64,000 nucleotides of DNA, from NCBI GenBank assembly GCA_023426575.1, contig JAFAAL010000030.1, positions 1,637 through 65,636 on the forward strand, given 5' to 3'. Below, piece after piece: positions 12,011 through 49,530 of this stretch. Origin of the DNA: Bacillota bacterium. Its GTDB lineage: Bacteria; Bacillota; Clostridia; Saccharofermentanales; DTU023. The notes beneath the pieces were generated by a model, which ran no database searches, was not told where the DNA came from, and saw only the letters and a program-made list of their open reading frames with translations. Position 1 is the stretch's first letter; each line of letters begins with the position of its first letter. A program made the translations under genes and the position numbers.

Positions 12011-14242
12011 TTATCTCCGCCGAGGCGCCTGTCGATCAGATTTTGCAGGGCCGACAGAGCCGCCGCCAGGACGGGATCCGTTGCCATTTGACGATTTCGA
12101 TCCATTGCCATTCGACGCCTTAGGCGTGTTAGCATTTTGCGCCTTGGAGCCATGGCCGTTCTGCCCGTTGGGCGAGGTCTTGGGACTCGCGCCAGGATTT
12201 CTATTCTGTCGTTCTTCCTCGAGCTGGCGGAAGAATTCCGCATCTTCCTCTGCTTGTTTTTGCCGTCTGCGCTTGCGCATCAGGGCTGTGAGGACAGCGA
12301 TGAGAGCGATCAAGAGGGCGAGAATAATGAGAATCCAGGCCCAGATGGGGAACTTGCTGCCACCCTCGTCATCTCCGCCGGGGAATTCTCCAGGCTCGCC
12401 TGGGAACTCTCCCTCGGGGGGATACATATCGTCTGGAGGCATGGCCTCGACGACTTCGAGGCTCAATTCCTCTTCAATAATCTTTGGCTGGCCGTTGCTA
12501 TCCTCATAGTGAATTTGGATCTTGATCTTTTCTCCATTTGTGGGGTTCTCAGGCATAATTGAGATGTCGACATCCTTGGCGGCACCTGGGTCAATATTGC
12601 CGAGAAAGACCTCTGGAGCACTGACGGCCCCACCCTCTGGGAAGGTGATGGAGGCATTGTTCAGCTTGTTCTTACCCTTGTTGAGAATGGAGAAGGTGAG
12701 GTTTCCCTCCTGCCCGACGCTGAGCTGAGCCGGATAGGCCTCGACACCCGAGATACCGACGCGCGTCTCCTGATGAAGCTGGAGAGAGAGGGTCTCTTCG
12801 GCATTGTAGACCTTGGCCGCGTAGTCCTCGTATTCCATCTTGAGGTTCAGAGGATAAATCTTCTCCTCGAGATTGGCCGAGGCCTGGAGGTCCAAGATCA
12901 GCTCGTACTGGCCCCCCGCAGCGATGTAGTCGATGTACTTGGTCGTGGCACCGTCGGTCGGCAAGAAGGGGGCGCCTTCTCCCGAGTCAAAGCTCAGGCG
13001 GACGTTTTGCACCGCCGTCACAGTGGAGGTATTTTCCAGCGTCAGGCGGAGCCTGAACTTATCGCCGCCCATGATCTGCTCGGGCGTCGTCGTGAAGCCC
13101 TTGGAAATCAGGCGCGGTGTGGGAATTTTAACTTCTTCTGTCGGCTTCTCTTCGCCGACACCATTGACATAGAAAATGAGGGAGAGGGTTACCTCAGAAA
13201 ATTCTTCTGGCAGTGTGATTTTATAGCCCTCATGACTGTAGTAGAGACCCTCGTACTCGTTGTAGTAGATGATGTCCTTCTTCGTCATAAAGTCTTGATA
13301 TTTGACGAGGAAGTCGACCTTGTAATAGCCCTTCTTCAGATCGGACTTGACGTACATGGGGCCAAAATCAATGGAGGCATCGACGCAAGTGCCATATAGG
13401 TCGAGGCCGAGTGCCCCCTGGGGGGCCAGCAGCAATTCGAGCTGCTTTGTATAGTCAGATTTTAATATTTCAAAGGGAAAGTTCTCATCGAGGGGTGTCT
13501 GCGGCTGAATATTGACAATACGGACGTACTGATCCCCACGGTTGATAATGGGCAGGACCAGATTGATCTCTTGCCCGAGCTCGAGCCGGGGCACATCCCC
13601 TTCCTTGACCATCAGCATCGACTTGCGATTGACGGGATCTGGCAGGGCGGGTTTCTCGACGCCCTCCCCTGGTGGCTTGTTGGGATCGCGGGTTGGCTTG
13701 GTCTCACCCTCATCCTTGTCGGGAGGCGCGACAACCTCGTCAGAGCTCCCTATCTGTACACGGTAGTCGAGCTCTTGTTTCTTGGCCTGAGGCTGACCAT
13801 TGACAGTCTCTTCATATGTGACGATCAGGCGGATGTAGTAGATGCCGTCCTTAGCCTCGGGATTGACAGTATACTCGCCAAAGCTGACGACGACATCTTC
13901 GATATCGGGGTGCTGGGTGATGGTCGCCTGAAAATCAAATTTACTCTCTTCCAGAGGAAATTTCTGAGGATCGCTCGAACTGTGGATCGACACTTGCTTG
14001 ATCTTGATCCCCTGTCGATTGGGTCGCAGGGTAAAGACGATCGGCTTGCTATCGTTGTGCACATAGGTTGTAAGATCTGAGCCAACAATCTTGACGGCGC
14101 TATCGGCCAGAGGATCCGTCGCCTCAGTGGCGAGGACCACGCCTCGGTCAATAGAGGGCCCGATGGGCCATCCCAGACAGAGATTCATCACTAAGATGAG
14201 CAGAAATGGCGTAAAGACTTTCTTCAATTTACTGTGCATCAT
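12011..14242 (-). CDS. Large secreted, membrane-anchored protein of the MacB-type ABC operon (beta-sandwich repeat-like; function unknown)
   Basis: GGGAGG RBS and ATGATG start overlapping the upstream ATPase stop. Signal-like MHSKLKKVFTPFLLILVMNLCLG, a ~640-aa extracytoplasmic body, the TM helix FPIWAWILIILALLIALIAVLTALM, and a basic/N/G/S-rich tail. Confidence 0.6.
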   Translation of the reverse strand: MMHSKLKKVFTPFLLILVMNLCLGWPIGPSIDRGVVLATEATDPLADSAVKIVGSDLTTYVHNDSKPIVFTLRPNRQGIKIKQVSIHSSSDPQKFPLEESKFDFQATITQHPDIEDVVVSFGEYTVNPEAKDGIYYIRLIVTYEETVNGQPQAKKQELDYRVQIGSSDEVVAPPDKDEGETKPTRDPNKPPGEGVEKPALPDPVNRKSMLMVKEGDVPRLELGQEINLVLPIINRGDQYVRIVNIQPQTPLDENFPFEILKSDYTKQLELLLAPQGALGLDLYGTCVDASIDFGPMYVKSDLKKGYYKVDFLVKYQDFMTKKDIIYYNEYEGLYYSHEGYKITLPEEFSEVTLSLIFYVNGVGEEKPTEEVKIPTPRLISKGFTTTPEQIMGGDKFRLRLTLENTSTVTAVQNVRLSFDSGEGAPFLPTDGATTKYIDYIAAGGQYELILDLQASANLEEKIYPLNLKMEYEDYAAKVYNAEETLSLQLHQETRVGISGVEAYPAQLSVGQEGNLTFSILNKGKNKLNNASITFPEGGAVSAPEVFLGNIDPGAAKDVDISIMPENPTNGEKIKIQIHYEDSNGQPKIIEEELSLEVVEAMPPDDMYPPEGEFPGEPGEFPGGDDEGGSKFPIWAWILIILALLIALIAVLTALMRKRRRQKQAEEDAEFFRQLEEERQNRNPGASPKTSPNGQNGHGSKAQNANTPKASNGNGSKSSNGNGSRPGGGSVGPAKSDRQAPRRR

Positions 14243-15065
14243 GACCTCCCATATCCTCCGGCTGATAGCGCTTTGTCCCCAGCTCAATGGCCACGATCCG
14301 ACCATCCACGATGCGGAAGATGCGGTCGGCGTATTGGGCCAAGTTATTATCGTGCGTGACCATGACCATGGTCTGATTCTCTTCCTTGGCGATACGCTGC
14401 AGGAGAGCTAAAATTTCTTCAGTTGTCCGGCTGTCGAGGTTCCCCGTCGGCTCGTCCGCGAAGACGATCTCGGGATTGACAACTAGAGCCCTGGCGATAC
14501 CGACGCGCTGCTGTTCACCGCCCGACATCTCAAAGGGCCGGTGGCGAACCTTCTTCTGCAGCCCCACCGAAAAGAGCATCTGCCGCGCCTTGCGACGCCG
14601 CTTGGAACGACTTTCTCCACGAAAGACCAGAGGTAGTTCCACATTCTCTTCGGCCGTCTGACTCGCAATCAGGTTGAAGCTCTGGAAGATGAAGCCGATG
14701 TGCTGACGACGAAAATTGACGAGCTGCTGCTCACTCATTCGCGTGATGTCCCGCTGATGGATATAGACCTTGCCACGACTCGGTCGCTCGAGGCCCGCCA
14801 GCATGTTGAGCAGCGTGGACTTACCAGAACCGGAGGTCCCCACGATGGCGAGAAACTCACCACGACGGACGTCAAAGCTGACCCCGTTGAGTGCTCTCAC
14901 CGCCGTCGTGCCCAGACGAAAAATCTTCCAGAGATCCCGCACGGAGATGACGATGTCGAGGGCATCAGGCAGCTCCCCCGAGAGGGAGTCCTGCTTCACG
15001 CTAGCCTCAGTCGCTTCGACGGCGAGACTCGCTTGCCCCTGTCTCGTCATTGTTTCATCTGGCAT
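14229..15065 (-). CDS. ABC transporter ATP-binding protein (MacB/LolD-type)
   Basis: GTSGSGKSTLLNMLAG, SGGEQQRVGIARAL and VFADEPTGNLD. The start is placed at ATG 15065 (GAGG 5 nt upstream) rather than the ORF-track alternative start at 15107. Confidence 0.85.
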   Translation of the reverse strand: MPDETMTRQGQASLAVEATEASVKQDSLSGELPDALDIVISVRDLWKIFRLGTTAVRALNGVSFDVRRGEFLAIVGTSGSGKSTLLNMLAGLERPSRGKVYIHQRDITRMSEQQLVNFRRQHIGFIFQSFNLIASQTAEENVELPLVFRGESRSKRRRKARQMLFSVGLQKKVRHRPFEMSGGEQQRVGIARALVVNPEIVFADEPTGNLDSRTTEEILALLQRIAKEENQTMVMVTHDNNLAQYADRIFRIVDGRIVAIELGTKRYQPEDMGGHDAQ

Positions 15066-15095
15066 CTTGACCTCGCTCCATCCTTTCACTATCGC

Positions 15096-15123
15096 TAAGT
15101 TTAACACATTAAGTTTAACACAT
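15096..15123. repeat. Perfect tandem direct repeat, 2 x 14 bp (TAAGTTTAACACAT), in the divergent ABC-operon/tnaA intergenic region
   Basis: Read directly: unit 1 at 15096-15109 and unit 2 at 15110-15123, lying 31-58 nt upstream of the ATPase ATG (15065). Confidence 0.9.
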
Positions 15124-15216
15124 GATGAAGCATCTTCACGCTTGATTGAGAGCTTCGCTTATTAAAAAATTTTTAACTTGAAAAAAGCCTCCGAAGAAGG
15201 ATTTTTTAAGAGTTTT

Positions 15217-15225
15217 TGTTATACT
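15217..15225 (+). promoter_or_regulatory. Extended -10 promoter element (TGtTATACT) 7 nt upstream of the tnaA ATG
   Basis: TG at 15217-15218 and TATACT at 15220-15225, with the ATG at 15232. There is no Shine-Dalgarno sequence between them and no good -35. Confidence 0.35.
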
Positions 15226-15231
15226 TGACGC

Positions 15232-16605
15232 ATGGCTAAATATGTACGTGAACCATTTCGAATCAAGATGATTGAGACGATGCCAACCACGACGAGAACC
15301 GAGCGAGAGCGTTATTTGAAGGAGGCACATTATAATCTCTTCGGTCTGCGCAGTGACTGGGTGGCCATCGATCTCTTGACGGACAGCGGTACGGGGGCGA
15401 TGAGCTCGACCCAGTGGGCCGCCATGCTCCAGGGAGACGAGGCTTACGCCGGAGCTCGGGGCTACTATAAGTTGACAGAGGCTGTCGAAGATATCTTTGG
15501 CTATCAGTTTATGCAGCCCGTCCATCAGGGGCGCGCGGCGGAGAAGGTCCTCTTCCCGATCTTGCTGAAGGCTGGTCAAATATCGATCTCCAATATGCAC
15601 TTTGATACGACGCGGGGTCACGTCGGTCTCGTCGGGGCCGAGGCCGTGGATCTCGTGGATCCTGCGGCCAGAGACACTGAGTCCTATGCCCCCTTCAAGG
15701 GCAACATGGACTGCGAGCGCCTCCGCGCATTCCTCCAGGACAAGGGCGAGCAGGTCGGCGTCATCATCATGACTCTGACCAATAATTCCGCGGGCGGTCA
15801 GCCCGTCTCTCTTGCCAATCTCCGCCAGGTCTCTGAGATTGCCAAGGCCCATCAGATTCCCCTGGTCATCGATGCGGCCCGCTACGCCGAAAATGCCTAC
15901 TTTATTCAAGAGCGCGAGGACGCCTGTCGGGGGATGAGCATCTCTGAAATCGTCCGTGAGTGCTTTAAGCTGGCCGACGCCTTCACCATGTCCGCCAAGA
16001 AGGACGCCATCGTCAACATGGGCGGTCTCATCGGGATTCGGGAGGATCGCGAGCTCTACGAGAAGGTCAAGATCAATACGGTGCCGATGGAGGGATTCAT
16101 CACTTATGGGGGGCTCGCCGGTCGCGATTTGGAAGCGCTCGCCATCGGCCTCTATGAGGGCATCGATCCCAATTTCCTCCACTATCGGATCAAGCAGGTG
16201 GAATACCTCGGCGAGAGACTTCGCGAGATCGGCATCCCCGTACAGTATCCGATCGGCGGCCATGCCGTCTTCGTCGATGCCAAGCGTCTGCTGCCCCAGA
16301 TTCCCTATCATCAGTTCCCGGCCCAGGCGCTCGCCATCGAGCTCTATCTCGAGGCGGGCATTCGCTCTTGTGATGTCGGCTCCTTCATGCTCGACCCAGA
16401 TCCCAAGACGGGAGTGCAGCCGGAGGCTGAAATGGAGTTTACGAGGCTCTGCCTCCCCCGCCGGGTCTATACGCAGGCCCATCTGGAGGAGATTGTTGAG
16501 GCTTTTGCCGCGATTAAAGAACGCGCATCGACGCTTCGAGGCTACGAGATTGTCGAACAGGCACCCGTCCTCCGGCACTTCACAGCCAAGCTCAAACCGC
16601 TCTAG
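15232..16605 (+). CDS. tnaA: Tryptophanase (beta-eliminating lyase family)
   Basis: EPFRIKMIE...[16 protein letters not shown]-lysine motif [24 protein letters not shown] and the C-terminal [11 protein letters not shown]. These resemble E. coli TnaA more than tyrosine phenol-lyase, from memory. Confidence 0.8.
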
Positions 16606-16615
16606 GTTTCCGAAA

Positions 16616-16653
16616 TCAAAAAGAGCCGCCCCGTCTGGAGCGGCTCTTTTTTT
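16616..16653. terminator. Bidirectional intrinsic terminator between tnaA and the DUF1015 gene
   Basis: AAAAAGAGCCGC-cccgtctgga-GCGGCTCTTTTTTTT: an 8-bp stem flanked by an A-run and a T-run. Confidence 0.75.
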
Positions 16654-16663
16654 TGAACATTTT

Positions 16664-17926
16664 CTAGTCGTCGAGGCTGTGGACGAAGAGGCCAGAGCGC
16701 AGCTTCGGCTCGAACCAGGTCGACTTAGGCGGCATGATCTCACCGGCGTCGGCGATGCCGAGCAGTTCATCCATCGCAGTTGGGAAGAGGGCAAAGGCCA
16801 CCTGCATTTCCCCACTATCCACCCGGCGCTCGAGTTCCTCGAGACCGCGGATGCCTCCGACGAAGTCGATGCGCTCATCGACTCGCGGATCACCGATGCC
16901 GAGGATTGGCGCGAGGAGGTTCTGCTGGAGGATCGAGACGTCGAGGCGATCGACGGGATCTGCCTGGGCGAGGAGCTCTGGCTTGGCCTCGAGGGCGTAC
17001 CACTCCCCATCGAGATACATGCTGTAATTCGCCTTCTCACTCGGGCGAATCTGCTCGAGATCTAATCCAGCCTCATACTTTTTCACGCTGAATTTCTCCA
17101 TGATCTCCGTCAGGAACTGCTCCTTGCTGCGGCCGTTGAGGTCGCGGACGACGCGGTTGTAGTCCATGACGTAGAGGTCGCGATCGGCAAAGAGGACTGC
17201 CATGAAGTAGTTGAACTCGGCCTCGGGGCCGCGGTCCGGGAACTCCGCCCGGCGCTGTTCGCCGACTTTGGCGGCAGAGGCTGAGCGGTGGTGACCGTCG
17301 GCGATGTAGAGGGCGTCGAGCTCGGCGAATTCGAGGATGAGTTCGCGGGTCAGATCGGGATCCTGGATGACCCAGCCGACGTGCATGATATGATCCTCAG
17401 TCGTGAAGTTAAAGACCGGCTTGTGGCGCTTGATGTACTCATGCATGATCTCGTCCACGCGCTCGATATGTCGATAAGTGAGGAAGATGGGGGCCGTGTT
17501 GGCATTACAAGTTCCAAAATGCTTGATGCGATCGACTTCCTTGGCAGCGCGGGTCAGCTCGTGCTTCTTGATCTTGCCCGTCTGGTATTCATCGACAGAG
17601 ACACAGGCGACGAGACCCGTCTGGACGCGACCGTCCATAATCTGGCGATAGATGTAGAAGTGGGCCTCGTCATCTTGGACCATGTGGCCCTCACGGATGA
17701 GGCGCTGGAGATTCTCACGCCCCTTGGCGTAGACCTCGTCACTGTACATATCGACATTGTCGGGAAAGTTGATCTCGGCACGGACGACGTTCAGGAAGGA
17801 GAGCGGCTTGCCCTCAGCCATGGCCTGGGCCTCACTGCGGTTCATGACGTCATAGGGCAGGGAGGCAATCTGATCGGCCTTGCCAGGGGCGGGGCGGAGC
17901 GCTCTGAAGGGACGGATGACAGACAT
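16664..17926 (-). CDS. DUF1015 family protein
   Basis: 420 aa. The N-terminus MSVIRPFRALRPAPGKADQIASLPYDV and the overall length match my recollection of DUF1015. Confidence 0.7.
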   Translation of the reverse strand: MSVIRPFRALRPAPGKADQIASLPYDVMNRSEAQAMAEGKPLSFLNVVRAEINFPDNVDMYSDEVYAKGRENLQRLIREGHMVQDDEAHFYIYRQIMDGRVQTGLVACVSVDEYQTGKIKKHELTRAAKEVDRIKHFGTCNANTAPIFLTYRHIERVDEIMHEYIKRHKPVFNFTTEDHIMHVGWVIQDPDLTRELILEFAELDALYIADGHHRSASAAKVGEQRRAEFPDRGPEAEFNYFMAVLFADRDLYVMDYNRVVRDLNGRSKEQFLTEIMEKFSVKKYEAGLDLEQIRPSEKANYSMYLDGEWYALEAKPELLAQADPVDRLDVSILQQNLLAPILGIGDPRVDERIDFVGGIRGLEELERRVDSGEMQVAFALFPTAMDELLGIADAGEIMPPKSTWFEPKLRSGLFVHSLDD

Positions 17927-17940
17927 CGCAAGACTCCTCT

Positions 17941-18855
17941 CTAAATGGGGAAGTGACTGCTGACAATCGAGACGATATTGTCACCAATCCGATCTTGAGC
18001 CTCTTGGGTCGCTGCCCCGATATGCGGAGTCAGGGAGAGGCGATCACAGTTCATCAGTTCGGGCTTGTCCAGGGGCTCGCGTTCGAAGACGTCGAGGGCG
18101 GCGCCTGCGACCTTGCCGCTTTCGATGGCGCGGACGAGGGCCTCTTCATCGATGACGCCCCCACGGGCGGCCTGGATGATATAGACGCCGTCCTTCATCT
18201 TGGCAAAGGTCTCCTCCGTGATCACGGCCTCGCCAGTAAATGGGAGGTGGAGGGAGATATAGTCGGCCTCCGCGAGGACCTCGTCCATCGACTTATAGGC
18301 CCAGCCGTGCTCAGCCTCGCCCTCTTCGAAGCGGAAGAGGTCGAAGTAGATGACCTTCATGCCGAGAGCCTGAGCCTTCTCAGCCAGCGTTCTGCCGATG
18401 CGGCCGAGACCGATGATGCCGAGTGTCTTGCCCATGATTTCCGTGCCGTCATACTGCTTCTTCAGCCACTCACCACGGGCCATTGAGCGATTGGCGCTCG
18501 CAATGTGGCGCGCCAGGCTCAGCATGTGGCCGATGACGAGTTCTGCCACCGCATTGGAAGAGGCGGCGGGCGTATTGGTCACTTCGATGCCGTGCTGCTT
18601 GGCGTAGTCGACGTCGATATTGTCGATGCCGACCCCCGCGCGAATGATCAGTTTGAGTCTGCCGCCCTCAGCCGCCGCATCGATTTCTGGCTGGCGGACC
18701 TTGGTGGCAGAGCGGACGACGAGACAGTCAACCTCCTTGAGGCGCTGGTGAAGAGATTCTCCCTCATATTTCGTCGTGTCGACCTGGTAGCCCAGGCGCT
18801 CGAGTTCCTGCTTTGCAGATTCTGCAATGCCATCGTTGGCTAAAATGATAAACAT
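17941..18855 (-). CDS. D-isomer-specific 2-hydroxyacid dehydrogenase, short phosphoglycerate-dehydrogenase-like (no ACT domain)
   Basis: NAD-binding GIIGLGRIGRTLAEKAQALGMKVIYFD. 304 aa. Sits between the DUF1015 and class-V aminotransferase genes. Confidence 0.75.
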   Translation of the reverse strand: MFIILANDGIAESAKQELERLGYQVDTTKYEGESLHQRLKEVDCLVVRSATKVRQPEIDAAAEGGRLKLIIRAGVGIDNIDVDYAKQHGIEVTNTPAASSNAVAELVIGHMLSLARHIASANRSMARGEWLKKQYDGTEIMGKTLGIIGLGRIGRTLAEKAQALGMKVIYFDLFRFEEGEAEHGWAYKSMDEVLAEADYISLHLPFTGEAVITEETFAKMKDGVYIIQAARGGVIDEEALVRAIESGKVAGAALDVFEREPLDKPELMNCDRLSLTPHIGAATQEAQDRIGDNIVSIVSSHFPI

Positions 18856-35700: not shown

Positions 35701-35952
35701 ATGGGAATTTTAGCATGGTTACTCGTAGGTGGCGTCGCTGGTTGGCTCGCTGGCCTGATCATGAAAGAAGAACGTGGACTCGTCGGTAGCATCGTCGTCG
35801 GTATCGTCGGCGCATTTATCGGTGGTGCCATCATGAACGGGATCCAGGCGCCCACGGCTGGCTTCACCGGCTTCAACGTCTATTCTGTCCTGACAGCACT
35901 TCTCGGTGCGATTATCCTGATTGCTGTCATGCGCATGATTCGCAGACACTAA
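35701..35952 (+). CDS. GlsB/YeaQ/YmgE-family small membrane protein
   Basis: AGGAGG RBS. MGILAWLLVGGVAGWLAGLIMK...VGIVGAFIGGAIMNG. 83 aa. Confidence 0.85.
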   Translation: MGILAWLLVGGVAGWLAGLIMKEERGLVGSIVVGIVGAFIGGAIMNGIQAPTAGFTGFNVYSVLTALLGAIILIAVMRMIRRH

Positions 35953-35984
35953 GCGCTGCTGGCGAGTCCACTCGAGTTCTCGTC

Positions 35985-36029
35985 GCGATCATTCTGATCG
36001 CCATCATGCGCGTTCGTCGCAGAAACTAA
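35985..36029 (+). pseudogene. Remnant of a second GlsB/YeaQ gene (last ~15 codons only)
   Basis: The segment gcgatcattctgatcgccatcatgcgcgttcgtcgcagaaactaa encodes AIILIAIMRVRRRN*. The intact gene 3' end encodes AIILIAVMRMIRRH*. About 35 of 45 nt are identical by eye. Confidence 0.45.
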
Positions 36030-36068
36030 TAGAGTCAGTAAGCCAGCTGTCGTCATAGGCAGCTTTGA

Positions 36069-36110
36069 GTCAGGGGAGAGGCCACAGGCCCCTCCCCTGA
36101 CTTCCTTCTG
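36069..36110 (+). terminator. Intrinsic terminator marking the left edge of the low-GC island
   Basis: GTCAGGGGAG-12 nt loop-CTCCCCTGAC followed by TTCCTTCTG. Confidence 0.65.
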
Positions 36111-36136
36111 ATTCAGCTCAAAGAGATGCCGCAGTA

Positions 36137-37822
36137 TTGGCAGAATGGAGACATACGCTGAAACTCTTGCTTAATTACATCTTATCACGTTATAAGCGCG
36201 ATCTTTTTATTCGCTCTTTACTGTCAATCATCATTGGCCTAAGTTCTGCTGCACTCGTATATAGTAATAAGTTGCTTTTCGATCACATCGGACGACCTAT
36301 TGTAGCTAAAAAACTATTCTATGATGTATCCATTTTTTGTGTGATACAAGTATCCGCAATACTTATTCAGTCTGTGAATAATAGAGTTAACGACTTGGGC
36401 GCAAGCAAAATAAAAAGTGATTTAGAACAAGTCTTATATCAAAAGCAGCTCAGCCTCTCACTTGAAACACTGGAAACACCTGATACACATACCTCTATCA
36501 TGTTAGCTAGAAACTATGGCATAGATGCAGTATTTTCAACCATAAATAATCTCCTATCTTTATTGAATAGCCTTATTGGCATAACATCTATTCTGTATAT
36601 TTCCATTAGCATAACAACTTCAATGTTATCGGTTATTCTCATAATACCTATTCTTTCATTATATTTGAACACTGTTGTGGATAGGAAACTGGATAAAAAT
36701 CGTGAGACTACGGCTAAACTTAAAAGAGAGCAATCATATATCAATTCTCTGGCCTTGAGTCCACAAAATAGTAGAGAGATAAAAAGTTATCTAGCCGAAG
36801 CTTTCTTCATTAATAAGCTGAGGGCTGTATTATCAAATATATTCGAAAATGAGCGCGAGCAATTTTTAACCCAAGAAAAAATGAGAATTACTCTGGCACT
36901 CTTGGAATTTATAGCTGAATTATACATAATTATGGTAGCAGTAGTACAATCCGTCTCTGATGATATGCCCTTTGGAACAATTACCATGTTTATTGCTGCC
37001 ACTCAAAGCATTAGGGCACATATTAATAGCATCTTCGTCAATTTAAGGGATATAAATCAAAACAGACTGTTCAGTAGATATTTCTTTGATCTTTTACAAC
37101 TTAATTCAGAGCAAGAAACAGGTTCACTATGCCCGCACATCCATTCTATAACGATTGATAATTTAAGTTTTACATACCCAGGAACGACCAAGAAAGTAAT
37201 AAAGAATGTAAATCTAGAACTATTTAGTGGTGACAGAATACTTCTGATCGGACCCAATGGAGTCGGAAAAAGTACTTTAGTTAAACTTTTGGCTGGACTT
37301 TACCATACATACGAGGGCTCAATAAAAATAAACGGTATAGATCTCAGAGATATCTCTATCGAGAGTTACAGAAAGAAAGTCTCTGTGTTCTTCCAGGATT
37401 ATACTAATTTTGATTTAAGCATAGAGGAAAACACATATTTTGACAGTCACATTTCAGAAGCTCAAATGAATAAGATGCGCAACTTACATGCTGAGCTTGA
37501 TCTGCAAAGAAAAATTAAAGAAAAAAACATTAAACACGGCACCCGTTTGGGGTACTGGGATGGAAGCATTGTTTTTTCTGGAGGAGAAGCTCAACGAATA
37601 GCTATAGCACGCTGTTTAGCAAAACAGGCAGACTTTTATATTTTTGATGAGATCACCTCAGCGCAGGACTCAATATCGAGGCGGAATCTCTTTAGATCAG
37701 TTTTAGTTCCTGCAGATGACATAAGGATTATGATAACCCACAATCAAGAGTTAGCATCTAAATACGCGACAAAAGTTTTTAGAATAAAAAATGGTGAGAT
37801 CTTTCCAGATTCTACACCATGA
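36137..37822 (+). CDS. ABC exporter, fused 6-TM domain plus ATPase (no C39 peptidase domain)
   Basis: 561 aa. TMD first (LFIRSLLSIIIGLSSAALVY...), then GPNGVGKSTLVKLLAG, FSGGEAQRIAIARCL and FYIFDE. TTG start; the first in-frame ATG is ~120 codons in. Convergent with the radical SAM operon. Confidence 0.8.
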   Translation: MAEWRHTLKLLLNYILSRYKRDLFIRSLLSIIIGLSSAALVYSNKLLFDHIGRPIVAKKLFYDVSIFCVIQVSAILIQSVNNRVNDLGASKIKSDLEQVLYQKQLSLSLETLETPDTHTSIMLARNYGIDAVFSTINNLLSLLNSLIGITSILYISISITTSMLSVILIIPILSLYLNTVVDRKLDKNRETTAKLKREQSYINSLALSPQNSREIKSYLAEAFFINKLRAVLSNIFENEREQFLTQEKMRITLALLEFIAELYIIMVAVVQSVSDDMPFGTITMFIAATQSIRAHINSIFVNLRDINQNRLFSRYFFDLLQLNSEQETGSLCPHIHSITIDNLSFTYPGTTKKVIKNVNLELFSGDRILLIGPNGVGKSTLVKLLAGLYHTYEGSIKINGIDLRDISIESYRKKVSVFFQDYTNFDLSIEENTYFDSHISEAQMNKMRNLHAELDLQRKIKEKNIKHGTRLGYWDGSIVFSGGEAQRIAIARCLAKQADFYIFDEITSAQDSISRRNLFRSVLVPADDIRIMITHNQELASKYATKVFRIKNGEIFPDSTP

Positions 37823-37903
37823 AGCTGCCCCCTATCGCTAAAATTGCTGAACAAGCCATCTCATACCCAAAATGCTAATGATACCGTGGATGCGGAGGTT
37901 CAT

Positions 37904-39019
37904 TTAGTGCTTAAAACACGCTCTACTTCTGAAATACGATAAAGATAGACCTATACAAATCCAAATCAAAGAAGCAATACCGTGAAAAATTAAAGGATTC
38001 ATATGTCCAGTCCCAAAAATTCTTATCCCTAAAATGCTCCTATCAATATCTAATCCATAGGAAAGCACACCCCCAGGCAAGAACATCATAAGCTGTCTCA
38101 ATCCCAGAAGAAACTTGGGCAAACTGCCTATAAGCCTAAAATACTGTGGCAGGAATATTATAGATAAAGCATAGAATAGAGAAATCGAAGCTGAACTAGC
38201 TGCTTGTGAAAAACATTGCGATAACGCTAGCTGGAAGAATATAAAGGAAAGAAAATCAATGAGCGCAACAAGAACAAACATAAGAATATAATCGATAAGG
38301 GAGGCCTTATAAGAGGCAGTTAAGATATTTATATGCGAGGCTGGATTATCTATATTGTTTAGGCCAATATGACCATAAATCCAGAGAGTAGAAATATATA
38401 CAATAATTGGAAGTATAAAAAATACCAACCCAAAAATCAACTGAGTTAAGAGCTTCACAGGAAAGAGTTTCTGTTTAATCCTTTCTGCCCCGGATAGAAT
38501 TTTCCTGCAATGTATAATATCGTATGTATATCCAGAGGCAAAAACAAATGGTGAAACAATGAACATCCACTTGAGAAGAATGAAGAAGTTCTTTGTAATA
38601 TCTGCCAGCTGTGGATCATGAAACTCGGACAACTCACTAATTCTCTGCTCAAATTTGATCTTGCATTTAGGATCTTTTCTAGATGAGATCGTTTTGTTCT
38701 CCTGGCAGACGCTAGACTTCAACTTATTTAATAGCTGCAGGTCATTAAACTGGTCTATATAAGACGTTAAACAGTAGTATTTACTCCTGTTTTCAGGCCT
38801 CAAATGAAATGCCATATCGTGATTACTAATGTATTCATCCGCCTCCAAGCTTTTCTCAACATTAAGACTTTGGCCTATGTTAGGGCATGGAGCACTATAG
38901 CCTGTAAATTTGATTTCTCTAGAAGTTTTGATGGCAAGATAAGTGGAAATGGCAGAAATCAAAATCAAAAACGCTATTGCGAAATAATTAAATGTCTTCT
39001 TAACTTCTATTAGAAACAT
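37904..39019 (-). CDS. ABC-2-like permease paralog 2 (polytopic membrane protein)
   Basis: 371 aa: N-terminal TM helix, a ~130-aa extracytoplasmic segment, then ~5 TM helices. This is the same architecture as 41452..42558 and shares its KILS..R..K segment (HCRKILSGAERIKQKL vs MRMKKILSNTRRGLKKL). Last gene of the operon, 17 nt after the rSAM stop. Confidence 0.55.
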   Translation of the reverse strand: MFLIEVKKTFNYFAIAFLILISAISTYLAIKTSREIKFTGYSAPCPNIGQSLNVEKSLEADEYISNHDMAFHLRPENRSKYYCLTSYIDQFNDLQLLNKLKSSVCQENKTISSRKDPKCKIKFEQRISELSEFHDPQLADITKNFFILLKWMFIVSPFVFASGYTYDIIHCRKILSGAERIKQKLFPVKLLTQLIFGLVFFILPIIVYISTLWIYGHIGLNNIDNPASHINILTASYKASLIDYILMFVLVALIDFLSFIFFQLALSQCFSQAASSASISLFYALSIIFLPQYFRLIGSLPKFLLGLRQLMMFLPGGVLSYGLDIDRSILGIRIFGTGHMNPLIFHGIASLIWICIGLSLSYFRSRACFKH

Positions 39020-39036
39020 TGTATTCTCGTATCCTT

Positions 39037-40590
39037 CTACGCTCTAATTAAGTTGTTGAGTTTCATCAATTCATCTGGGTTATTCTCCAGGATTTCATGA
39101 TATAACATAAGACATTCTTTGACATGCTCCCTTTCAGAAGTGCAAAAATGTCTTTTTTTATCGAGATTAAATCCTTCATCAGTATATGAAGACGTATAAC
39201 AAATCCCGCATAGTAAGTTTGCCCAACATTTTGAGCAGTCTTCTTTTGAAGCATTTGCATAATCCTGCACGTATTTTTCCCTTATCAACTCGATATCGAA
39301 TCCTCTATCCACATGTCCGATAGAGGGAGAATCTCCGATTCTTTCGCAAACCTTAAAATCCCCATTCACAGTTACGTAAAGACGTCTAACACCAGGCACA
39401 CAACAACCATTAAATGGGATCATATTGCTGACGGAACAATCAAGACATAGTCTGCGATGAATGATATCAAGCATCTGAATCACTGCATTATGGTTTATTG
39501 AATTTATTGAACTTGATATACGAAGCATATCCTGTGATTTAAGCCACTCAGTTATCGGATTTAAGAAGACTGCATTTCCTTCACTATCAATAGTCAAATT
39601 CAAGTCACTAAGAATTTCCTCATCCTCATCCACACTCCCTTCGTTTGGCAGTGTCAAATCGATGCTGCTATTAATTGAAAAAGAAATATTCTTATAGAAC
39701 TCAGCAATTTTTTCCAACGAACTCGTCCGATATGGCGGCGCAAACACACCATTAATTGATATACCCTCTAATCCCTTTTCCCTATATGCATCAGTAATAA
39801 GCTCATAGCCTCGCATACAATCGTCAAAAGAGCCTCTTCCATCACAGTATATTCTCCAGCTGTCATGAATATCACGTGGACCATCTATACTGCATAGGAT
39901 ATTACAATTACCGAGACTCGCAAAGTACTGCGCCATTTCCTCATTCATTAAAGTCAGATTGGTAGTAAATGAATACCTTATGTCCTTGTCATAAATTTTA
40001 GCTTTTGCGTTACAATAGTCGATAATATTTCTCATCAAATTAAATTTGATAAGCGGTTCTCCTCCGTAAAAACTAATAGATAACTCTTTCCCAGAATGTG
40101 CGAATGCAAATTCCACTGCTTTAATAGCAGTTACAAGTAACATTTCTTCATTTCCAAAGTTTCTATTTGATTTGAACTCATCGTGATAAATACAATATTT
40201 GCAGCGCAGATTGCAACTCTCTGTAAGCTCCAAAATAAGTTGGGTAACATTATTCTCTAAAATCGATTCCAATTTCTCATAGTGAGATAGTGAATATAAA
40301 TCCTTTAATCCACCACCTAAGAGTAATCCTTCTTCAACTATAATACTGATAAATCCTCTTTCGAAGAGTCGATCTTTCAAAGTGGTCCAATTAGCGTCGA
40401 TCTTCTGTTCGCCACAACAATAAGCAAAAAACGCGCGCTCGTCATCTTCCTCAATGAGCACAACCTTACCGGAGCCACTATCATAGAAGTAGTCATTAGT
40501 TTTAGTGCTAAATAAAATCCCTTTAGACTTTAACTCCTCATCCGATAAACCTTCAAGTGCTATGAGGAAATGCGCTAGGCATGTATCCAT
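39037..40590 (-). CDS. Radical SAM / SPASM-domain peptide maturase candidate
   Basis: CNLRCKYC (CxxxCxxC, residues 126-133; nt 40192..40215), SFYGGEPL, and a C-terminal auxiliary-cluster region GCCVPGVRRLYVTVNGDFKVC ... CSKCWANLLCGIC ... HFC. A ~115-aa N-terminal extension precedes the core. 517 aa. Confidence 0.85.
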   Translation of the reverse strand: MDTCLAHFLIALEGLSDEELKSKGILFSTKTNDYFYDSGSGKVVLIEEDDERAFFAYCCGEQKIDANWTTLKDRLFERGFISIIVEEGLLLGGGLKDLYSLSHYEKLESILENNVTQLILELTESCNLRCKYCIYHDEFKSNRNFGNEEMLLVTAIKAVEFAFAHSGKELSISFYGGEPLIKFNLMRNIIDYCNAKAKIYDKDIRYSFTTNLTLMNEEMAQYFASLGNCNILCSIDGPRDIHDSWRIYCDGRGSFDDCMRGYELITDAYREKGLEGISINGVFAPPYRTSSLEKIAEFYKNISFSINSSIDLTLPNEGSVDEDEEILSDLNLTIDSEGNAVFLNPITEWLKSQDMLRISSSINSINHNAVIQMLDIIHRRLCLDCSVSNMIPFNGCCVPGVRRLYVTVNGDFKVCERIGDSPSIGHVDRGFDIELIREKYVQDYANASKEDCSKCWANLLCGICYTSSYTDEGFNLDKKRHFCTSEREHVKECLMLYHEILENNPDELMKLNNLIRA

Positions 40591-40591
40591 T

Positions 40592-41449
40592 TCAATTCTC
40601 CATTAAGTATACATACAAGTCTTCTAGGCGAGGGTTAACTTGTGTCGCATTTTTTATAGGCCTTGATGATACAAATCTTACTTTTGCATTGTGTGATTGA
40701 TCATTATAAACAGAGATTATCTTACAAGATTTAGCTAGAGTATCTACCTCTCTAGTATCCAAGCTAATCTCCCATACCATCTTAGAAAGACCTCTAAGGA
40801 GCTCATCTTCATAGCCCGAAGCAAGTATCTCCCCAGATCTGAGAAAGATAATCTGTTCAGCAATCTGCTCTATGTCAGGAACAATATGCGTAGAATATAT
40901 GACAATTCTTTGCTTGGAGAGTTGAGATATTAGATTCCTAAGATTAATCCTTTCCATGGGATCCAATCCAGAAGTTGGCTCATCTAATATAAGCACCTTA
41001 GGGTCATTTAACAGAGCCTGTATAAGACATAGACGTCTTTTCATTCCACCAGAAAACTCACCACACTTCTTATCCAAATGAGCCTTAAGATTACAAATCT
41101 CCGCAAGCATATCAATTCTATCATCCATAGATCTGCGTGATAGACCTTTAAGTTCCGCAAAATATCGCAAATAATCGATCGCCTTTAATTGAGGGTATAT
41201 ACAATCTTCTTGTGGAAGATAGCCCAAGTGCCTATAATACCCTGCACCTGCTTTGGCAATATTCTGCGTTCGCCACCTCACTTCACCCGCACTAGGCGCG
41301 CTAGCTGCAGCTAAAATATTGATAAGACTTGTCTTACCTGCACCATTAGGGCCTAATAAACCATATATACCTGAGACAAAATCAAAGCTGAACTCTTTAA
41401 CAGCTGTATTCTTTCTATATTTCTTAGAAACGTTCACTGCACTAAGCAT
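40592..41449 (-). CDS. ABC transporter ATP-binding protein (ABC-2 / immunity-type)
   Basis: ATG 2 nt after the permease stop, with GGGAGG upstream. GLLGPNGAGKTSLINILA, FSGGMKRRLCLIQAL and LILDEPTSGLD. The stop is 1 nt before the rSAM ATG. Confidence 0.85.
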   Translation of the reverse strand: MLSAVNVSKKYRKNTAVKEFSFDFVSGIYGLLGPNGAGKTSLINILAAASAPSAGEVRWRTQNIAKAGAGYYRHLGYLPQEDCIYPQLKAIDYLRYFAELKGLSRRSMDDRIDMLAEICNLKAHLDKKCGEFSGGMKRRLCLIQALLNDPKVLILDEPTSGLDPMERINLRNLISQLSKQRIVIYSTHIVPDIEQIAEQIIFLRSGEILASGYEDELLRGLSKMVWEISLDTREVDTLAKSCKIISVYNDQSHNAKVRFVSSRPIKNATQVNPRLEDLYVYLMEN

Positions 41450-41451
41450 AG

Positions 41452-42558
41452 TTAATGGACCTCCCATGCCCTAACAACTCTCGTAGTCAGGATAAGATTG
41501 CCTACTATTACAAATATTGCTACTAAAACGTGCTTAACGATCCTCAATATGATGTTGGCATGAGTCGAGATATTGGCACCCGTAAGTTCCTCTGGTATGT
41601 GTTTTACAACGGCCATAAGATTAGAGGGGAAGACTAATGGTAAGAAGTCAAATTGTGCTAAGAAAAATGGAATGATGATGATGATGAGAAGTCCCCCAAA
41701 CAAAGATTGCAGTGAAGAGGAAGAAACGGATGATATCATAACAATCGTTGAAGCAAGTACGAACATAGCAAGAGCATAAAAAAAGAGGGTTAATATAAAC
41801 AGCAATCCCATTGAAGGATCAACAATGTAGGGACGCATCATCACCGTTGATATTTTCTCTTTAAATAGGCTCGACTCATGTGACGAAAGCACATTTTTTA
41901 TGAAGTAAACCGCACAAGGAACGAGTGCACACAAAGAGAATATTCCTGATAGGACAAAAAATTTGTCCCATATAAGTTTCTTCAGTCCCCTCCGGGTATT
42001 ACTCAGTATTTTCTTCATGCGCATTGTTCTTTCTACAGTCATGATTGGAAATGACACAAGGACAAGCGCACCCAAAAGAAGATACATGAGAGGAAATTGG
42101 TTATCACCAAAAATGAGAAAAAAAGTCTCCCACCGTGTAGACGAAAAAAACCTCAAATCCTTGTAAAAATTATCCAGCATGCTGATCCTATCATTTGATA
42201 AGGTGTCAGTATTCGTGCTGTTGATCCCTGATAATTGTATTTCATCATAGATCTTATTACGGATCTGAGATGCCTCTACATATCGTTCAGATTTGATATT
42301 TTTTAATTTATGAATGGCTTCTTCTCTATTTTGTGCATCATTGAAAATCGGTGTAAGAGGATTCTCTTGCCTGATTTCACTTTCCTCATAAGCGCCTTCA
42401 ACCGATAAATAGTCGGACTCTTCAAGTAAATTAACATAATCCAAGTTCGCAAGAGCATGGTAGGCGTAAGCGGCTAAACAAAAGCTCAGTATAAAGAGCA
42501 CAACTCTTATTTTTGAATGAAATAAAATCCATAGCTCTTTTTTTCGACCGATATTCAT
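41452..42558 (-). CDS. ABC-2-like permease paralog 1
   Basis: 368 aa: TM1 (VVLFILSFCLAAYAY), an extracytoplasmic ~130 aa, then ~5 TM helices. Starts 8 nt after the precursor stop. Homologous by eye to the disrupted gene at 206..1292. Confidence 0.6.
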   Translation of the reverse strand: MNIGRKKELWILFHSKIRVVLFILSFCLAAYAYHALANLDYVNLLEESDYLSVEGAYEESEIRQENPLTPIFNDAQNREEAIHKLKNIKSERYVEASQIRNKIYDEIQLSGINSTNTDTLSNDRISMLDNFYKDLRFFSSTRWETFFLIFGDNQFPLMYLLLGALVLVSFPIMTVERTMRMKKILSNTRRGLKKLIWDKFFVLSGIFSLCALVPCAVYFIKNVLSSHESSLFKEKISTVMMRPYIVDPSMGLLFILTLFFYALAMFVLASTIVMISSVSSSSLQSLFGGLLIIIIIPFFLAQFDFLPLVFPSNLMAVVKHIPEELTGANISTHANIILRIVKHVLVAIFVIVGNLILTTRVVRAWEVH

Positions 42559-42566
42559 ATGCTAAT

Positions 42567-42773
42567 TTACTTTTTACGCGCTAAACCTAGATTGGCATCC
42601 TTATTATCGAAATTGCCTTCAAAACACGAACAAAAACAAGTTCCAAAAGTAACTGTAGACTTATTTCGCGTGCCTGAATATGCGCTGTTGGTATTACATA
42701 TACATCTGCACGTCCATATGAGACCTTGTGGTTCATTGTTTTCATTTGTAGCAATAGGTTTTAATATCTTCAT
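42567..42773 (-). CDS. Cys-rich 68-aa peptide, candidate RiPP precursor
   Basis: AGGAGG lies 7 nt upstream of the ATG. I re-translated it codon by codon: MKILKPIATNENNEPQGLIWTCRCICNTNSAYSGTRNKSTVTFGTCFCSCFEGNFDNKDANLGLARKK. Six Cys residues at 22/24/26 and 46/48/50. First gene of the operon containing the rSAM/SPASM enzyme. Confidence 0.65.
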   Translation of the reverse strand: MKILKPIATNENNEPQGLIWTCRCICNTNSAYSGTRNKSTVTFGTCFCSCFEGNFDNKDANLGLARKK

Positions 42774-42801
42774 AATTAAGCCTCCTTACTGAGTTGATTT
42801 G

Positions 42802-42830
42802 AATCTACACGATTTTTAAATATGTGTCAA
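42802..42830 (-). promoter_or_regulatory. Sigma-70-type promoter candidate for the precursor operon
   Basis: On the minus strand: TTGACA (42825-42830), a 17-nt spacer, then TAGATT (42802-42807). The predicted TSS is ~15-20 nt upstream of the RBS. Confidence 0.4.
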
Positions 42831-42894
42831 TATCTGTTGGAATTTCCTCATCATTCACTTCCTTACGATCTCCTTAGCATTTCCTATACTTTAA

Positions 42895-42931
42895 AAGTCA
42901 AAAAAGGGGGAACTGCGAACAGTTCCCCCTT
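42895..42931 (-). terminator. Intrinsic terminator of rplL (right edge of the island)
   Basis: 12-bp stem AAGGGGGAACTG/CAGTTCCCCCTT with a TTCG loop, then TTTTGACTTTT. Lies 24 nt after the rplL stop. Confidence 0.8.
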
Positions 42932-42955
42932 TGCTTCCATAAAAATTGAAAGATC

Positions 42956-43358: not shown

Positions 43359-44090
43359 TTACTCAGCATCGGCCTCGCCATTTTCGGCGGCGGGCTCTTC
43401 TGCTGCGGCAGGAGCAGCTTCTTCTGCTTCTGCGGCGGGGGCACTCTCCTCGGCGGGAGCTTCGGCAGCGGCTTCCTCGGCGGGAGCTTCTGCGGTGGCT
43501 TGCTCGGTGGCAGGCTCTTCTGCACTCTCGGCAGGAGCTGCTTCTTCAGCTGACTTTGAGGCGGCAGCTGCGAGATCGGAGACCTTTTCGAGACCCTTTT
43601 CTTCGCAGGCCTTTGCGGCTGCACCGAGGGTCATGGCGAGTGAAGTGATCGGGAACAGCAAGCTGGAGACCAACTGTCCATAGAGCGTTTCCTGGGTCGG
43701 AATGTTGGACAGCTTATTGATGGTGTCGAGTTCAGCGAGCTGACCTTCGACGACGCCACCCTTGATCTTGATCTTCTTGAACTCGTCGACGTACTTCTTG
43801 ACCATGCGAGGGGCCAAGACGACATCCTGAGTGGAGAAGGCCAGAGCCGTGGGGCCGGTCATCTCATCGCCGACTTCGATACCGATTTCCTTCAGGGCAC
43901 GACGGCTGATATTGTTCTTGATGACGCGATACTCGATGCCTTCTTTGCGGAAAGCAGCACGCATCTCAGTGTCCTGAGCAACCGTGAGACCCTGATAGTC
44001 GGCAAAGACGATGGACTGAGCTTCCTTGAGCTCAGCGGCCAGCTTCTTTACGCGATCCTTCTTCTGCGCCAGAATTTTTTGACTGGGCAT
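43359..44090 (-). CDS. rplJ: 50S ribosomal protein L10 with a ~72-aa Ala/Glu/Pro-rich C-terminal extension
   Basis: L10 body (residues 1-~170, IVFADYQGLTVAQDTEMR...) followed by AAAASKSAEEAAPAESAEEPATEQATAEAPAEEAAAEAPAEESAPAAEAEEAAPAAAEEPAAENGEADAE. 243 aa total. Confidence 0.9.
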   Translation of the reverse strand: MPSQKILAQKKDRVKKLAAELKEAQSIVFADYQGLTVAQDTEMRAAFRKEGIEYRVIKNNISRRALKEIGIEVGDEMTGPTALAFSTQDVVLAPRMVKKYVDEFKKIKIKGGVVEGQLAELDTINKLSNIPTQETLYGQLVSSLLFPITSLAMTLGAAAKACEEKGLEKVSDLAAAASKSAEEAAPAESAEEPATEQATAEAPAEEAAAEAPAEESAPAAEAEEAAPAAAEEPAAENGEADAE

Positions 44091-48691: not shown

Positions 48692-48827
48692 AACTCCACC
48701 TAGATAAATGTATATGTATAATACCGCTCTTAGACATTCTTTGGCAATCCCTTTGGTAAGCCTGAACAAAATTTGTTTTGGGGCTTTGTGCAAGATGTAA
48801 AACATGAGAAACCTTGTCTAAAAATGC

Positions 48828-48856
48828 TTGACAGAGAATTTTTATGGCGCCATACT
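48828..48856 (+). promoter_or_regulatory. Sigma-70-type promoter candidate at the head of an ORF-free region
   Basis: TTGACA (48828-48833), a 17-nt spacer, then CATACT (48851-48856). TACTAT is also available with a 19-nt spacer. Confidence 0.35.
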
Positions 48857-48862
48857 ATGGCC

Positions 48863-49491
48863 AAGCTCCGGGGAAAGCAATACCCGAAAAGCGAATGCAA
48901 AGCGAGAAATCGCGAGGGCAGCGAAGCTTGACAAGTAGATATCTGAAGCTAGGAGACTGGTTATGAGACAAGACAAGTCTCGTGCGGAGGGAGCAGCAAG
49001 CACCCCGCAAGTGAAACACCAGCACGATGCCTGAATCAGGATCAATAGTGAAAGATTTAGAAAATTTGAATGACTGGGCCCAACAGCCGTTGAACTGAGA
49101 CAAAAACGGAATATGTCATGTGAGAATGAAGTGAAAATGAAATGATTACATACCATCCCATCCGTTACCTACCATGTTTCGACAACGCACTAGGCAAAGA
49201 TTTGAAAATCAGACGTCAGATGAGTATAAATCATAAAAGTCCAAAAGATTCAGAGATGAGACGAAAGCGCGTTGCAAGTCAGAATGATAAGTAGGCAAAA
49301 TCAATTGGTTTGTGTTCAACGAGAGAGGAAACGATCAGACGTAAACACTGTAAAACGCAAAATGGAAACCAAGATAGGAAAACGGCCAGAGCTTATCATC
49401 TGATACAAAAACTCTTAAAATTGCAAGAGCTAAAACGACAACTTCGCCGGAGCAGAGAGACCCTCGAGAAATCGAGGGTCTCTTCTTTTTG
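48863..49491 (+). ncRNA. Candidate ~630-nt noncoding RNA (family not recognised)
   Basis: Bracketed by the promoter candidate above and a strong plus-strand terminator. The plus strand is purine-rich and has no credible ORF on either strand. Several local hairpins are visible, including GCGA-GAAA-TCGC, GAGAC-7 nt-GTCTC, CCGTT-13 nt-AACGG and CTCTT-8 nt-AAGAG. Confidence 0.3.
49456..49491 (+). terminator. Strong intrinsic terminator (plus-strand orientation)
   Basis: 12-bp stem AGAGACCCTCGA/TCGAGGGTCTCT with a GAAA loop, followed by TCTTTTTG. On the minus strand there is no U-tract after the hairpin. Confidence 0.75.
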
Positions 49492-49530
49492 CCTCTCTTG
49501 AAAAGGCGCTCCTCTCGCCACAGGCCCATT

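Follow-up and report, generated by a model that had tools for sequence, protein, structure and literature searches.

Why does a segment of about 6.8 kb, far lower in guanine-plus-cytosine (GC) content than its surroundings, lie directly behind the ribosomal protein gene rplL of an otherwise GC-rich bacterium, where did it come from, and what do its genes make? The segment, here called the island (positions 36111 to 42894), is part of a stretch of 64,000 nucleotides from a Bacillota bacterium (GTDB lineage Clostridia; Saccharofermentanales; DTU023; assembly GCA_023426575.1, contig JAFAAL010000030.1), and this whole stretch is referred to as the window. Our analysis of sequence, predicted structure and related loci makes it very likely that the island is a horizontally acquired cluster without a mobility gene, which encodes a thioether-bridged peptide of ruminococcin C (RumC) type, probably a bacteriocin, and resides in an uncultured member of the Clostridia with high GC content (~57%).

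The GC content of the island is 0.367, compared with 0.567 for the remaining window. Sections of 400 nt showed values of 0.34-0.42 throughout positions 36200-42800 and of 0.48-0.63 across 6 kb on each side. At the left transition, GC dropped from 0.53 to 0.35 between 35800 and 36600, and at the right it was back at 0.57 by 43000. Sections of 1 kb outside the island (n = 221) had a mean GC of 0.568 (standard deviation 0.032) with a minimum of 0.452, while the top 1-kb section inside reached 0.399. GC at third codon positions (GC3) was 0.29-0.39 for the six island genes versus 0.60-0.82 for 13 host genes. The tetranucleotide distance to the rest of the window was 0.056 for the island, whereas no non-overlapping segment of the same size exceeded 0.018. 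The composition scans detected no second segment of this kind in the window. A preliminary description of the sequence had reported an abrupt low-GC island behind rplL and proposed to compare GC, tetranucleotides and codon usage; carried out over the 64-kb window, these comparisons all set the island apart and support that report.

The edges of the island are sharp and adjoin two hairpins:

36111..42894, no strand: low-GC island, left edge within 36103-36136, right edge within 42895-42902
36068..36102, + strand: GC-rich hairpin at the left edge, in host-type DNA, with 16-nt arms and a 3-nt loop, without a proper T tract and not called by the terminator search
42903..42932, - strand: intrinsic terminator of rplL at the right edge, in host DNA, a 13-pair stem followed by a T run

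The positions given earlier for the rplL terminator, for a promoter around 42830, for the left hairpin and for a TTG start at 36137 all hold, and the left hairpin, earlier taken for a terminator, lacks a proper T tract.

Relatives of the host were found by a ThrS search. In two of them, L097 (a contig of the NCBI metagenome-assembled genome GCA_030537595.1) and L098 (a Logan contig), the genes serS, thrS and glsB face rplL-rplJ-rplA-rplK-nusG-secE-rpmG, and the gap between glsB and rplL comprises 82 bp with one hairpin. Identity to the window is 80% for ThrS, 93.6% for RplL, 96.6% for RplK and 97% for NusG, and L097 is syntenic with the window over at least 10 kb on each side of the site. DNA homology between the window and L097 ends at 35954, which is the end of glsB, and restarts at 42954, which is the rplL stop. 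The gap between glsB and rplL in L097/L098 is thus the empty site that the preliminary description had suggested looking for in close relatives.

In the more distant L099 (ThrS 74%), four unrelated genes of native GC are present between glsB and rplL, which indicates that this gap carries different cargo across lineages. The insert in L099 (~6.5 kb, positions 12547-18799 of its contig) encodes an 853-aa protein without domain match, a Hydrolase_4 protein and two unknown proteins of 493 aa and 303 aa. L095 (assembly GCA_030537525.1) and L096 are the closest relatives by ThrS (85%), and neither contig extends beyond the 3' end of thrS to cover the site; another contig with a related peptide (L185, peptide P0246) ends just past the precursor gene. 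Such breaks of relatives' contigs at these loci would agree with assembly difficulties at inserts that are odd in composition or variable among strains. Scans with RplL found neither a close relative nor an empty site among the GTDB species representatives (best match 74% identical), and no close relative in the metagenomes of the Joint Genome Institute (JGI; best match 72%).

Within the species, the spacing between rplL and the first island gene was 183 bp in the four contigs measured. Contig L001 spans both junctions and is 99.46% identical to the window. It differs from the window by ~16 single-nucleotide polymorphisms (SNPs) in the 6.8-kb island and by ~67 in 13 kb of flank, a density in the island which implies that it was present before these strains split.

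The genes and signals of the island are as follows:

42802..42830, - strand: promoter-like site TTGACA-17-TAGATT of a five-gene operon, the top promoter match in the region (10/12 positions), ~30 nt upstream of the precursor ribosome-binding site
42781..42787, - strand: ribosome-binding site AAGGAGG, 7 nt ahead of the precursor ATG, as read from the sequence
42567..42773, - strand: precursor peptide, 68 aa, MKILKPIATNENNEPQGLIWTCRCICNTNSAYSGTRNKSTVTFGTCFCSCFEGNFDNKDANLGLARKK, with Cys at 22, 24, 26, 46, 48 and 50
41452..42558, - strand: membrane protein perm1, 368 aa, no Pfam or NCBIfam match, 21-24% identical to its positional counterparts in the related clusters L091-L094 and L102
40592..41467, - strand: ATP-binding subunit of an ATP-binding cassette (ABC) transporter, 291 aa, PF00005 (E 4e-27), its start overlapping the end of perm1
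39037..40590, - strand: RumMC-like radical S-adenosylmethionine (SAM)/SPASM peptide maturase, 517 aa, NF035951 match
37904..39019, - strand: membrane protein perm2, 371 aa, no family match, 22-26% identical to its positional counterparts in related clusters
36137..37822, + strand: ABC exporter half-transporter with membrane and ATPase domains, 561 aa, TTG start, PF00005 and PF00664, no peptidase domain

The five genes on the - strand follow each other in the order precursor, perm1, ATPase, maturase, perm2, with gaps of at most 17 nt or overlaps, and the exporter on the + strand is convergent with this operon. Seven open reading frames (ORFs) with a shared theme of peptide, radical SAM enzyme and ABC parts had been described for the island. 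Family searches agree with the theme, and six of the ORFs are real genes. A 77-aa ORF on the + strand (42559-42792) was rejected as spurious, since it is antisense to the precursor gene.

The predicted maturase matched the RumMC model NF035951 with an E-value of 4.5e-130 and 434.7 bits over positions 8-506 of 510, a score that does not reach the equivalog cut-off of 720. The next-best model was CcpM (267.6 bits), and further matches include the QhpD, PapB and SCIFF maturases. The radical SAM motif CX3CX2C is present as C126-X3-C130-X2-C133 (PF04055, E 5.5e-16). The SPASM motif comprises seven Cys (C396-X13-G-X4-C-X36-C-X2-C-X5-C-X2-C-X18-C483), and the spacing in RumMC1/2 is identical (CX13GX4CX36CX2CX5CX2CX18C; PMC6779426). 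These Cys residues are invariant across 44 maturase homologs, or nearly so for C396. An AlphaFold model (predicted local distance difference test score, pLDDT, 86.8) gave CteB (5WHY/5WGG) as the top match among solved structures, with ~500 alignment columns and a Foldseek E-value of 6.5e-21; by sequence, CteB was matched with an E-value of 1e-31. In the model, residues 24-86 form three strands followed by helices, a beta3-alpha3 arrangement that may represent a peptide-recognition domain and lies within the CteB alignment; no family of recognition elements for ribosomally synthesised and post-translationally modified peptides (RRE) was matched by sequence. Judged by its radical SAM and SPASM motifs, the predicted enzyme is a SPASM radical SAM peptide maturase of RumMC-like type, with an adjacent Cys-rich precursor and ABC genes of export and immunity type. 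The closest maturase outside the species, among 5.8 billion proteins, is 44-45% identical.

The Cys residues of the precursor are arranged as 3+3 (CxCxC-19-CxCxC). Its sole family match was NCBIfam NF035954 (CA_C0660 putative sactipeptide bacteriocin), with 28.8 bits (E 9.5e-7) at a cut-off of 60, and six related peptides, five of them with 3+3 Cys, scored 25-37 bits, also under this cut-off. The peptides encoded at the corresponding position in the most closely related clusters are 34-49% identical and keep all six Cys. Only eight matches to this 3+3 subfamily were found in 1.84 billion representative proteins and ten clusters in 5.8 billion proteins, counts which are lower bounds because small ORFs often remain uncalled in metagenomes. 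When the profile of the peptide family was searched against the PDB, the only matches were chance matches to coronavirus spike proteins.

In RumC, bridges connect Cys22-Asn35, Cys24-Ala31, Cys41-Lys61 and Cys45-Arg53, which results in two hairpins, and removal of a leader of 19-20 residues is needed for activity (PMC6779426, PMC6760926). The signature of RumC peptides (63 aa; Cys 22, 24, 41, 45; AGPAY hinge; conserved C-terminal region) is absent from the island precursor. The precursor has Ala at position 31, and Cys22 and Cys24 are at the same positions as in RumC. The stretch between K5 and R23 contains neither Lys nor Arg and offers no trypsin site in the style of RumC. With the RumC spacings (+8 and +20), the partners of Cys50 and Cys46 would be Lys58 and Arg66, basic residues as are Arg53 and Lys61 of RumC. 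A tentative proposal, which we consider less likely than not, is that the precursor founds a rare 3+3 subfamily, that modification by the RumMC-like enzyme would yield a peptide of two hairpins with six thioether bridges, and that the cluster does so without a leader peptidase or regulator of its own. The literature searched holds no sactipeptide with more than four bridges, and its matches for six thioethers were papers on PapB and ranthipeptides only. Searches for literature on CA_C0660, Apre_1838, TIGR04067, TIGR04068 and CcpM returned nothing relevant.

Both perm1 and perm2 contain six hydrophobic segments, the first of which is followed by a loop of ~120 residues. This is the layout of ABC-2 permeases, and the genes at the same positions in a Sarcina cluster are annotated as ABC permease subunits. 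BLASTP detected no significant similarity between the two proteins. By their predicted topology, both are probably ABC-2-type permeases. The ATPase shares 48-52% identity with those of related clusters, and its top NCBIfam models are DrrA, GldA and lantibiotic-protection ATPases, all under their cut-offs. A separate ATPase and six-helix permeases thus lie together in the cluster, as in immunity transporters of ABC-2 type. The exporter resembles MsbA and bacteriocin exporters, and aligns to exporters with a C39 peptidase only beyond the peptidase domain. Its start is 35 nt past the host hairpin 36068-36102. In every related cluster examined, the exporter gene is the last gene and on the same strand as the rest, while it is inverted here.

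Taken together, we propose the following working model. The island would have integrated in the short gap where glsB and rplL converge, before the sampled strains diverged. It may have entered by illegitimate recombination or by recombination via flanking homology, and its source was probably a low-GC Firmicute. Homology and layout suggest that a sigma-70-type promoter (42830-42802) drives the five-gene operon, to which any read-through of the terminator of the co-oriented rplL would add expression. By analogy to RumC, the RumMC-like enzyme would abstract hydrogen from the backbone of downstream residues and join the backbone carbons there to the thiols of Cys22/24/26 and Cys46/48/50. The outcome would be two stapled hairpins as in RumC, where each hairpin has two bridges, but here with as many as three. 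The 561-aa half-transporter would export the peptide, the leader (~residues 1-19) would be cut by a protease encoded outside the island, and the ATPase together with perm1 and perm2 would protect the producer from its own peptide. We infer the peptide chemistry and the bacteriocin activity from homology and gene layout.

Several observations weigh against this reading, either on the side of the transfer or on that of the product. Pfam and NCBIfam searches found no integrase or transposase domains among the island proteins, the tRNA search found no tRNA, and no convincing direct or inverted repeats flank the island, the short pairs of low identity being at the level expected by chance for DNA rich in adenine and thymine (AT). 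The lack of integrase, transposase, tRNA and terminal inverted repeats is as stated in the preliminary description, and its suggestion to look for att-like repeats at the flanks yielded no candidate above chance; the repeat pairs I13 (36021/42785) and I25 (37870/42865) were rejected as att sites as they are AT-rich pairs of this chance type. Non-coding DNA inside the island amounts to less than 300 bp and leaves no space for decayed mobility genes. The absence of mobility gene, att repeat and tRNA leaves the transfer mechanism unsupported. All ten contigs that encode an identical RplL contain the island, so that the island looks fixed within the species. Among the hallmarks of genomic islands, deviating composition and an empty site are therefore present, and mobility signatures and within-species variability are absent. 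With 44-45% identity of the best outside maturase, no donor is visible among the 5.8 billion proteins, and the related clusters L102-L104 and L091-L094 (GC 0.41-0.48) are not near enough to be the donor. On the side of the product, both precursor and maturase score below the curated cut-offs of CA_C0660 and RumMC, and the profile of the peptide family did not detect RumC1 (PDB 6T33) even at E-values up to 10. The island encodes no leader peptidase. The exporter is inverted, and no promoter-like site was found upstream of it, so that its expression may rely on read-through from glsB. Finally, SCIFF peptides are classed as ranthipeptides, linked via beta or gamma carbons (PMC8172795), and CteB, the closest solved enzyme, acts on such a peptide, so that the bridges proposed here may run to an alpha, beta or gamma carbon.

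A phage collection gave only matches of at most 29% identity. Three IMG/VR contigs (L187-L189), predicted viral or prophage sequences of 47-69 kb, encode full-length maturase homologs that are 34-37% identical, and such contigs are a possible vehicle for cassettes of this kind. Transposase fragments flank the related clusters L102 and L103, and L102 also has a resolvase.

How do other explanations account for these data? According to the preliminary description, the island broke the conserved linkage of rplL to rpoBC, so that the insertion would have disrupted an rplKAJL-rpoBC arrangement. In the window, rplL indeed runs into the island and then into glsB/thrS, and neither rpoB nor rpoC is found anywhere in the 64 kb, the largest ORF being SbcC-like. 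However, glsB/thrS are already next to rplL in the island-free L097/L098, with glsB 82 bp from rplL, L099 has no rpoB at this site either, and 45 of 59 related Clostridia loci lack an rpoB-sized gene behind rplL, which is present in the other 14. These loci are from GTDB species representatives with an RplL 61-74% identical and at least 5 kb of sequence downstream of rplL; a gene was counted as rpoB-sized if it lay within 1.6 kb, had the orientation of rplL and encoded at least 1100 aa, a criterion that was checked on L053, whose ORF is RpoB. The island-free relatives and the 45 loci imply that the separation of rplL and rpoB is ancestral to the clade and older than the insertion. We therefore consider a disruption by the island to be highly improbable; rpoBC missing behind rplL is a trait of the clade rather than insertion damage, and a tempting misreading is thereby corrected. 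The cluster might, instead, be ancestral to the clade and have been deleted in the L097 lineage, its low GC being a stable local property. This would agree with the finding of a single island-free lineage (L097 and L098 derive from the same sample), with the fixation of the island within the species and with earlier rearrangements of the site (the L099 insert and a glsB relic described below), and the closest lineage (ThrS 85%, L095/L096) is uninformative as its contigs end at thrS. Yet a GC3 of 0.29-0.39 next to 0.60-0.82 could not persist under host mutation pressure over a divergence that has brought ThrS to 80%, the outgroup L099 has unrelated genes of native GC at the site, and no homolog in other lineages is more than 45% identical, which makes an ancestral cluster improbable. 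That an assembly or binning error joined low-GC and high-GC contigs might be suspected, as the source is apparently uncultured and known mainly from metagenome assemblies, and as relatives' contigs tend to end close to such loci. The junction between rplL and the precursor gene recurs, however, in ten contigs from different assemblers and several samples, and L001 spans both junctions. From this we conclude that the island is not an assembly chimera, an explanation that can practically be dismissed.

The most serious alternative accepts that the island is foreign and concerns its product, which might be something other than a sactipeptide bacteriocin of RumC type, namely a ranthipeptide, a peptide with partial disulfides, or a signal peptide. 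The maturase score of 434.7 bits in place of 720, the CcpM, QhpD, PapB and SCIFF maturases as next models, CteB as best solved structure, and the failure of the peptide profile to find RumC1 in the PDB are all compatible with this view, as are two-component regulators that adjoin the clusters L093/L094. On the other hand, RumMC is by far the top model and is matched end-to-end (434.7 versus 267.6 bits for CcpM), the SPASM spacing is that of RumMC1/2, and the length of the peptide, its leader length and Cys22/Cys24 coincide with RumC. The acceptors predicted for Cys50 and Cys46 (Lys58 and Arg66) would be basic as in RumC, and a dedicated ABC-2 set together with an exporter is the usual layout for bacteriocin immunity and export. 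A product of another kind therefore appears unlikely, though it deserves to be kept in mind, and we favour a horizontally acquired cluster for a RumC-type peptide.

The flank of the island shows traces of other events:

35977..36029, + strand: relic of the 3' end of a second glsB in the host flank, 53 nt, 77% identical to 35900-35952, with a translation ending in VLVAIILIAIMRVRRRN and a stop codon, absent from L097

This relic suggests that a tandem copy of glsB was lost and that the site was rearranged earlier. Near the 3' end of glsB (35862-35946), the window differs from L001 by 18 SNPs in 85 bp, while the two sequences agree over the first 160 nt of glsB and, save for one SNP at 36117, over everything downstream, with relic and hairpin included. 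The SNP cluster looks like a short patch of recombination or conversion beside the island; gene conversion from the glsB relic was rejected as its cause, since the L001 allele is unlike the relic.

Further observations concern the host DNA. The rplJ gene (43359-44090) encodes an L10 protein of 243 aa with a C-terminal tail of ~70 aa in which Ala, Glu and Pro are abundant. The length of L10 is 218 aa in L097 and 246 aa in L099, and only the first 175-180 residues align. Over ~20 kb, GC is 0.48 in L097, 0.57 in the window and 0.60 in L099, despite 90-97% identity of NusG and RplK. T-box or ribosomal-protein leaders are expected in Firmicutes near thrS, serS and rplKAJL. No Rfam family reached the gathering score in the whole 64-kb window, these leaders included. 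A region of ~720 bp (48806-49530) between a metallophosphoesterase gene and an AlaX-like gene has no convincing ORF and no Rfam match, with a GC of 0.40-0.46 and an AT skew of ~+0.3.

Horizontal transfer itself is fairly ordinary. The six-Cys peptide is unusual, and the cluster is uncharacterised and below every curated family cut-off. Its value is somewhat greater for natural products than for genome biology, owing to a rare 3+3 Cys core and a minimal layout of one precursor and one enzyme. RumC-type peptides are pursued as antibiotics against Clostridium perfringens, C. difficile and multidrug-resistant Gram-positives (PMC6760926). The compact cluster with a new six-Cys core would be an easy target for heterologous expression, and it could reveal how one sactisynthase places three nested bridges per hairpin. 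For genome biology, it provides a clean, well-bounded biosynthetic cassette that was captured without a mobility gene, behind and co-oriented with a highly expressed ribosomal-protein operon.

Among metagenomic clusters, L102-L104 share the gene order of the island (precursor, perm1, ATPase, maturase, perm2, exporter). Their precursor P0242 (67 aa, 3+3 Cys) is 49% identical to that of the island, the maturase 44% and the ATPase 48%. L093/L094 encode 68-aa peptides with 3+3 Cys that are 42-48% identical to the island precursor and, unlike the island, add a gene for a C39_2-like peptidase and two-component regulators. In L102-L104 and L091-L094 all genes are on one strand, and the exporter has 618-623 aa versus 561 aa in the island, with 21-23% identity. 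L091, the contig with the most closely related cluster, contains a second, decayed copy as well (2153-5910), with a 193-aa fragment of the radical SAM gene at 3052-3633, and in the related ORF P0245 an ATPase and a precursor are fused into a chimera; duplication of the cassette, followed by decay, seems to have taken place.

More distant maturase homologs (35-38% identical) are found on plasmids of Clostridium tagluense, Anaerococcus prevotii, Sarcina sp. JB2 and Paraclostridium bifermentans. The CA_C0660/Apre_1838 clusters on the Sarcina sp. JB2 plasmid p2 and on C. tagluense pCM022-180 have the same parts list as the island, namely a radical SAM enzyme (36-38% identical), an ATPase (38% identical), a Cys-rich peptide of 66-69 aa with an MK(I/V)xxP leader, one or two permeases and an ABC exporter, and the Sarcina peptide is annotated as "Apre_1838 family putative sactipeptide bacteriocin". 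They differ in their Cys layout, which is 2+4 in Sarcina and 3+2 in C. tagluense in contrast to 3+3 in the island, whose peptide scores 28.8 bits at the cut-off of 60. In addition, the radical SAM gene comes first in these plasmid-borne clusters, whereas the island is chromosomal, lacks an M16 peptidase and has its exporter inverted. CteB of the SCIFF system (PDB 5WGG/5WHY) is the best solved match to the fold predicted for the island maturase, including a putative N-terminal domain of peptide-binding type, but is only ~22% identical, acts on a substrate with a different Cys pattern and gives rise to ranthipeptides.

The best-studied system for comparison is the RumC regulon of Ruminococcus gnavus E1 (RumC1-5, RumMC1/2). 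The two maturase types share the CX3CX2C motif and the SPASM spacing, and RumMC is the best family model over the full length of the island enzyme, which nevertheless scores under the RumMC equivalog cut-off. The regulon comprises five precursors and two maturases, and the island one of each. The island also lacks a peptidase of the RumPc (M16) type, a two-component regulator and the Lys/Arg between leader and core that serves trypsin. The island peptide shows no detectable similarity to RumC1, and has six Cys (3+3) and no AGPAY hinge, while RumC has four (2+2). Both clusters include exporter genes and ABC genes of immunity type, and the precursors resemble each other in length (68 aa versus 63 aa), in a leader of ~20 residues, in the first Cys at positions 22 and 24, and in two groups of Cys that suggest two hairpins.

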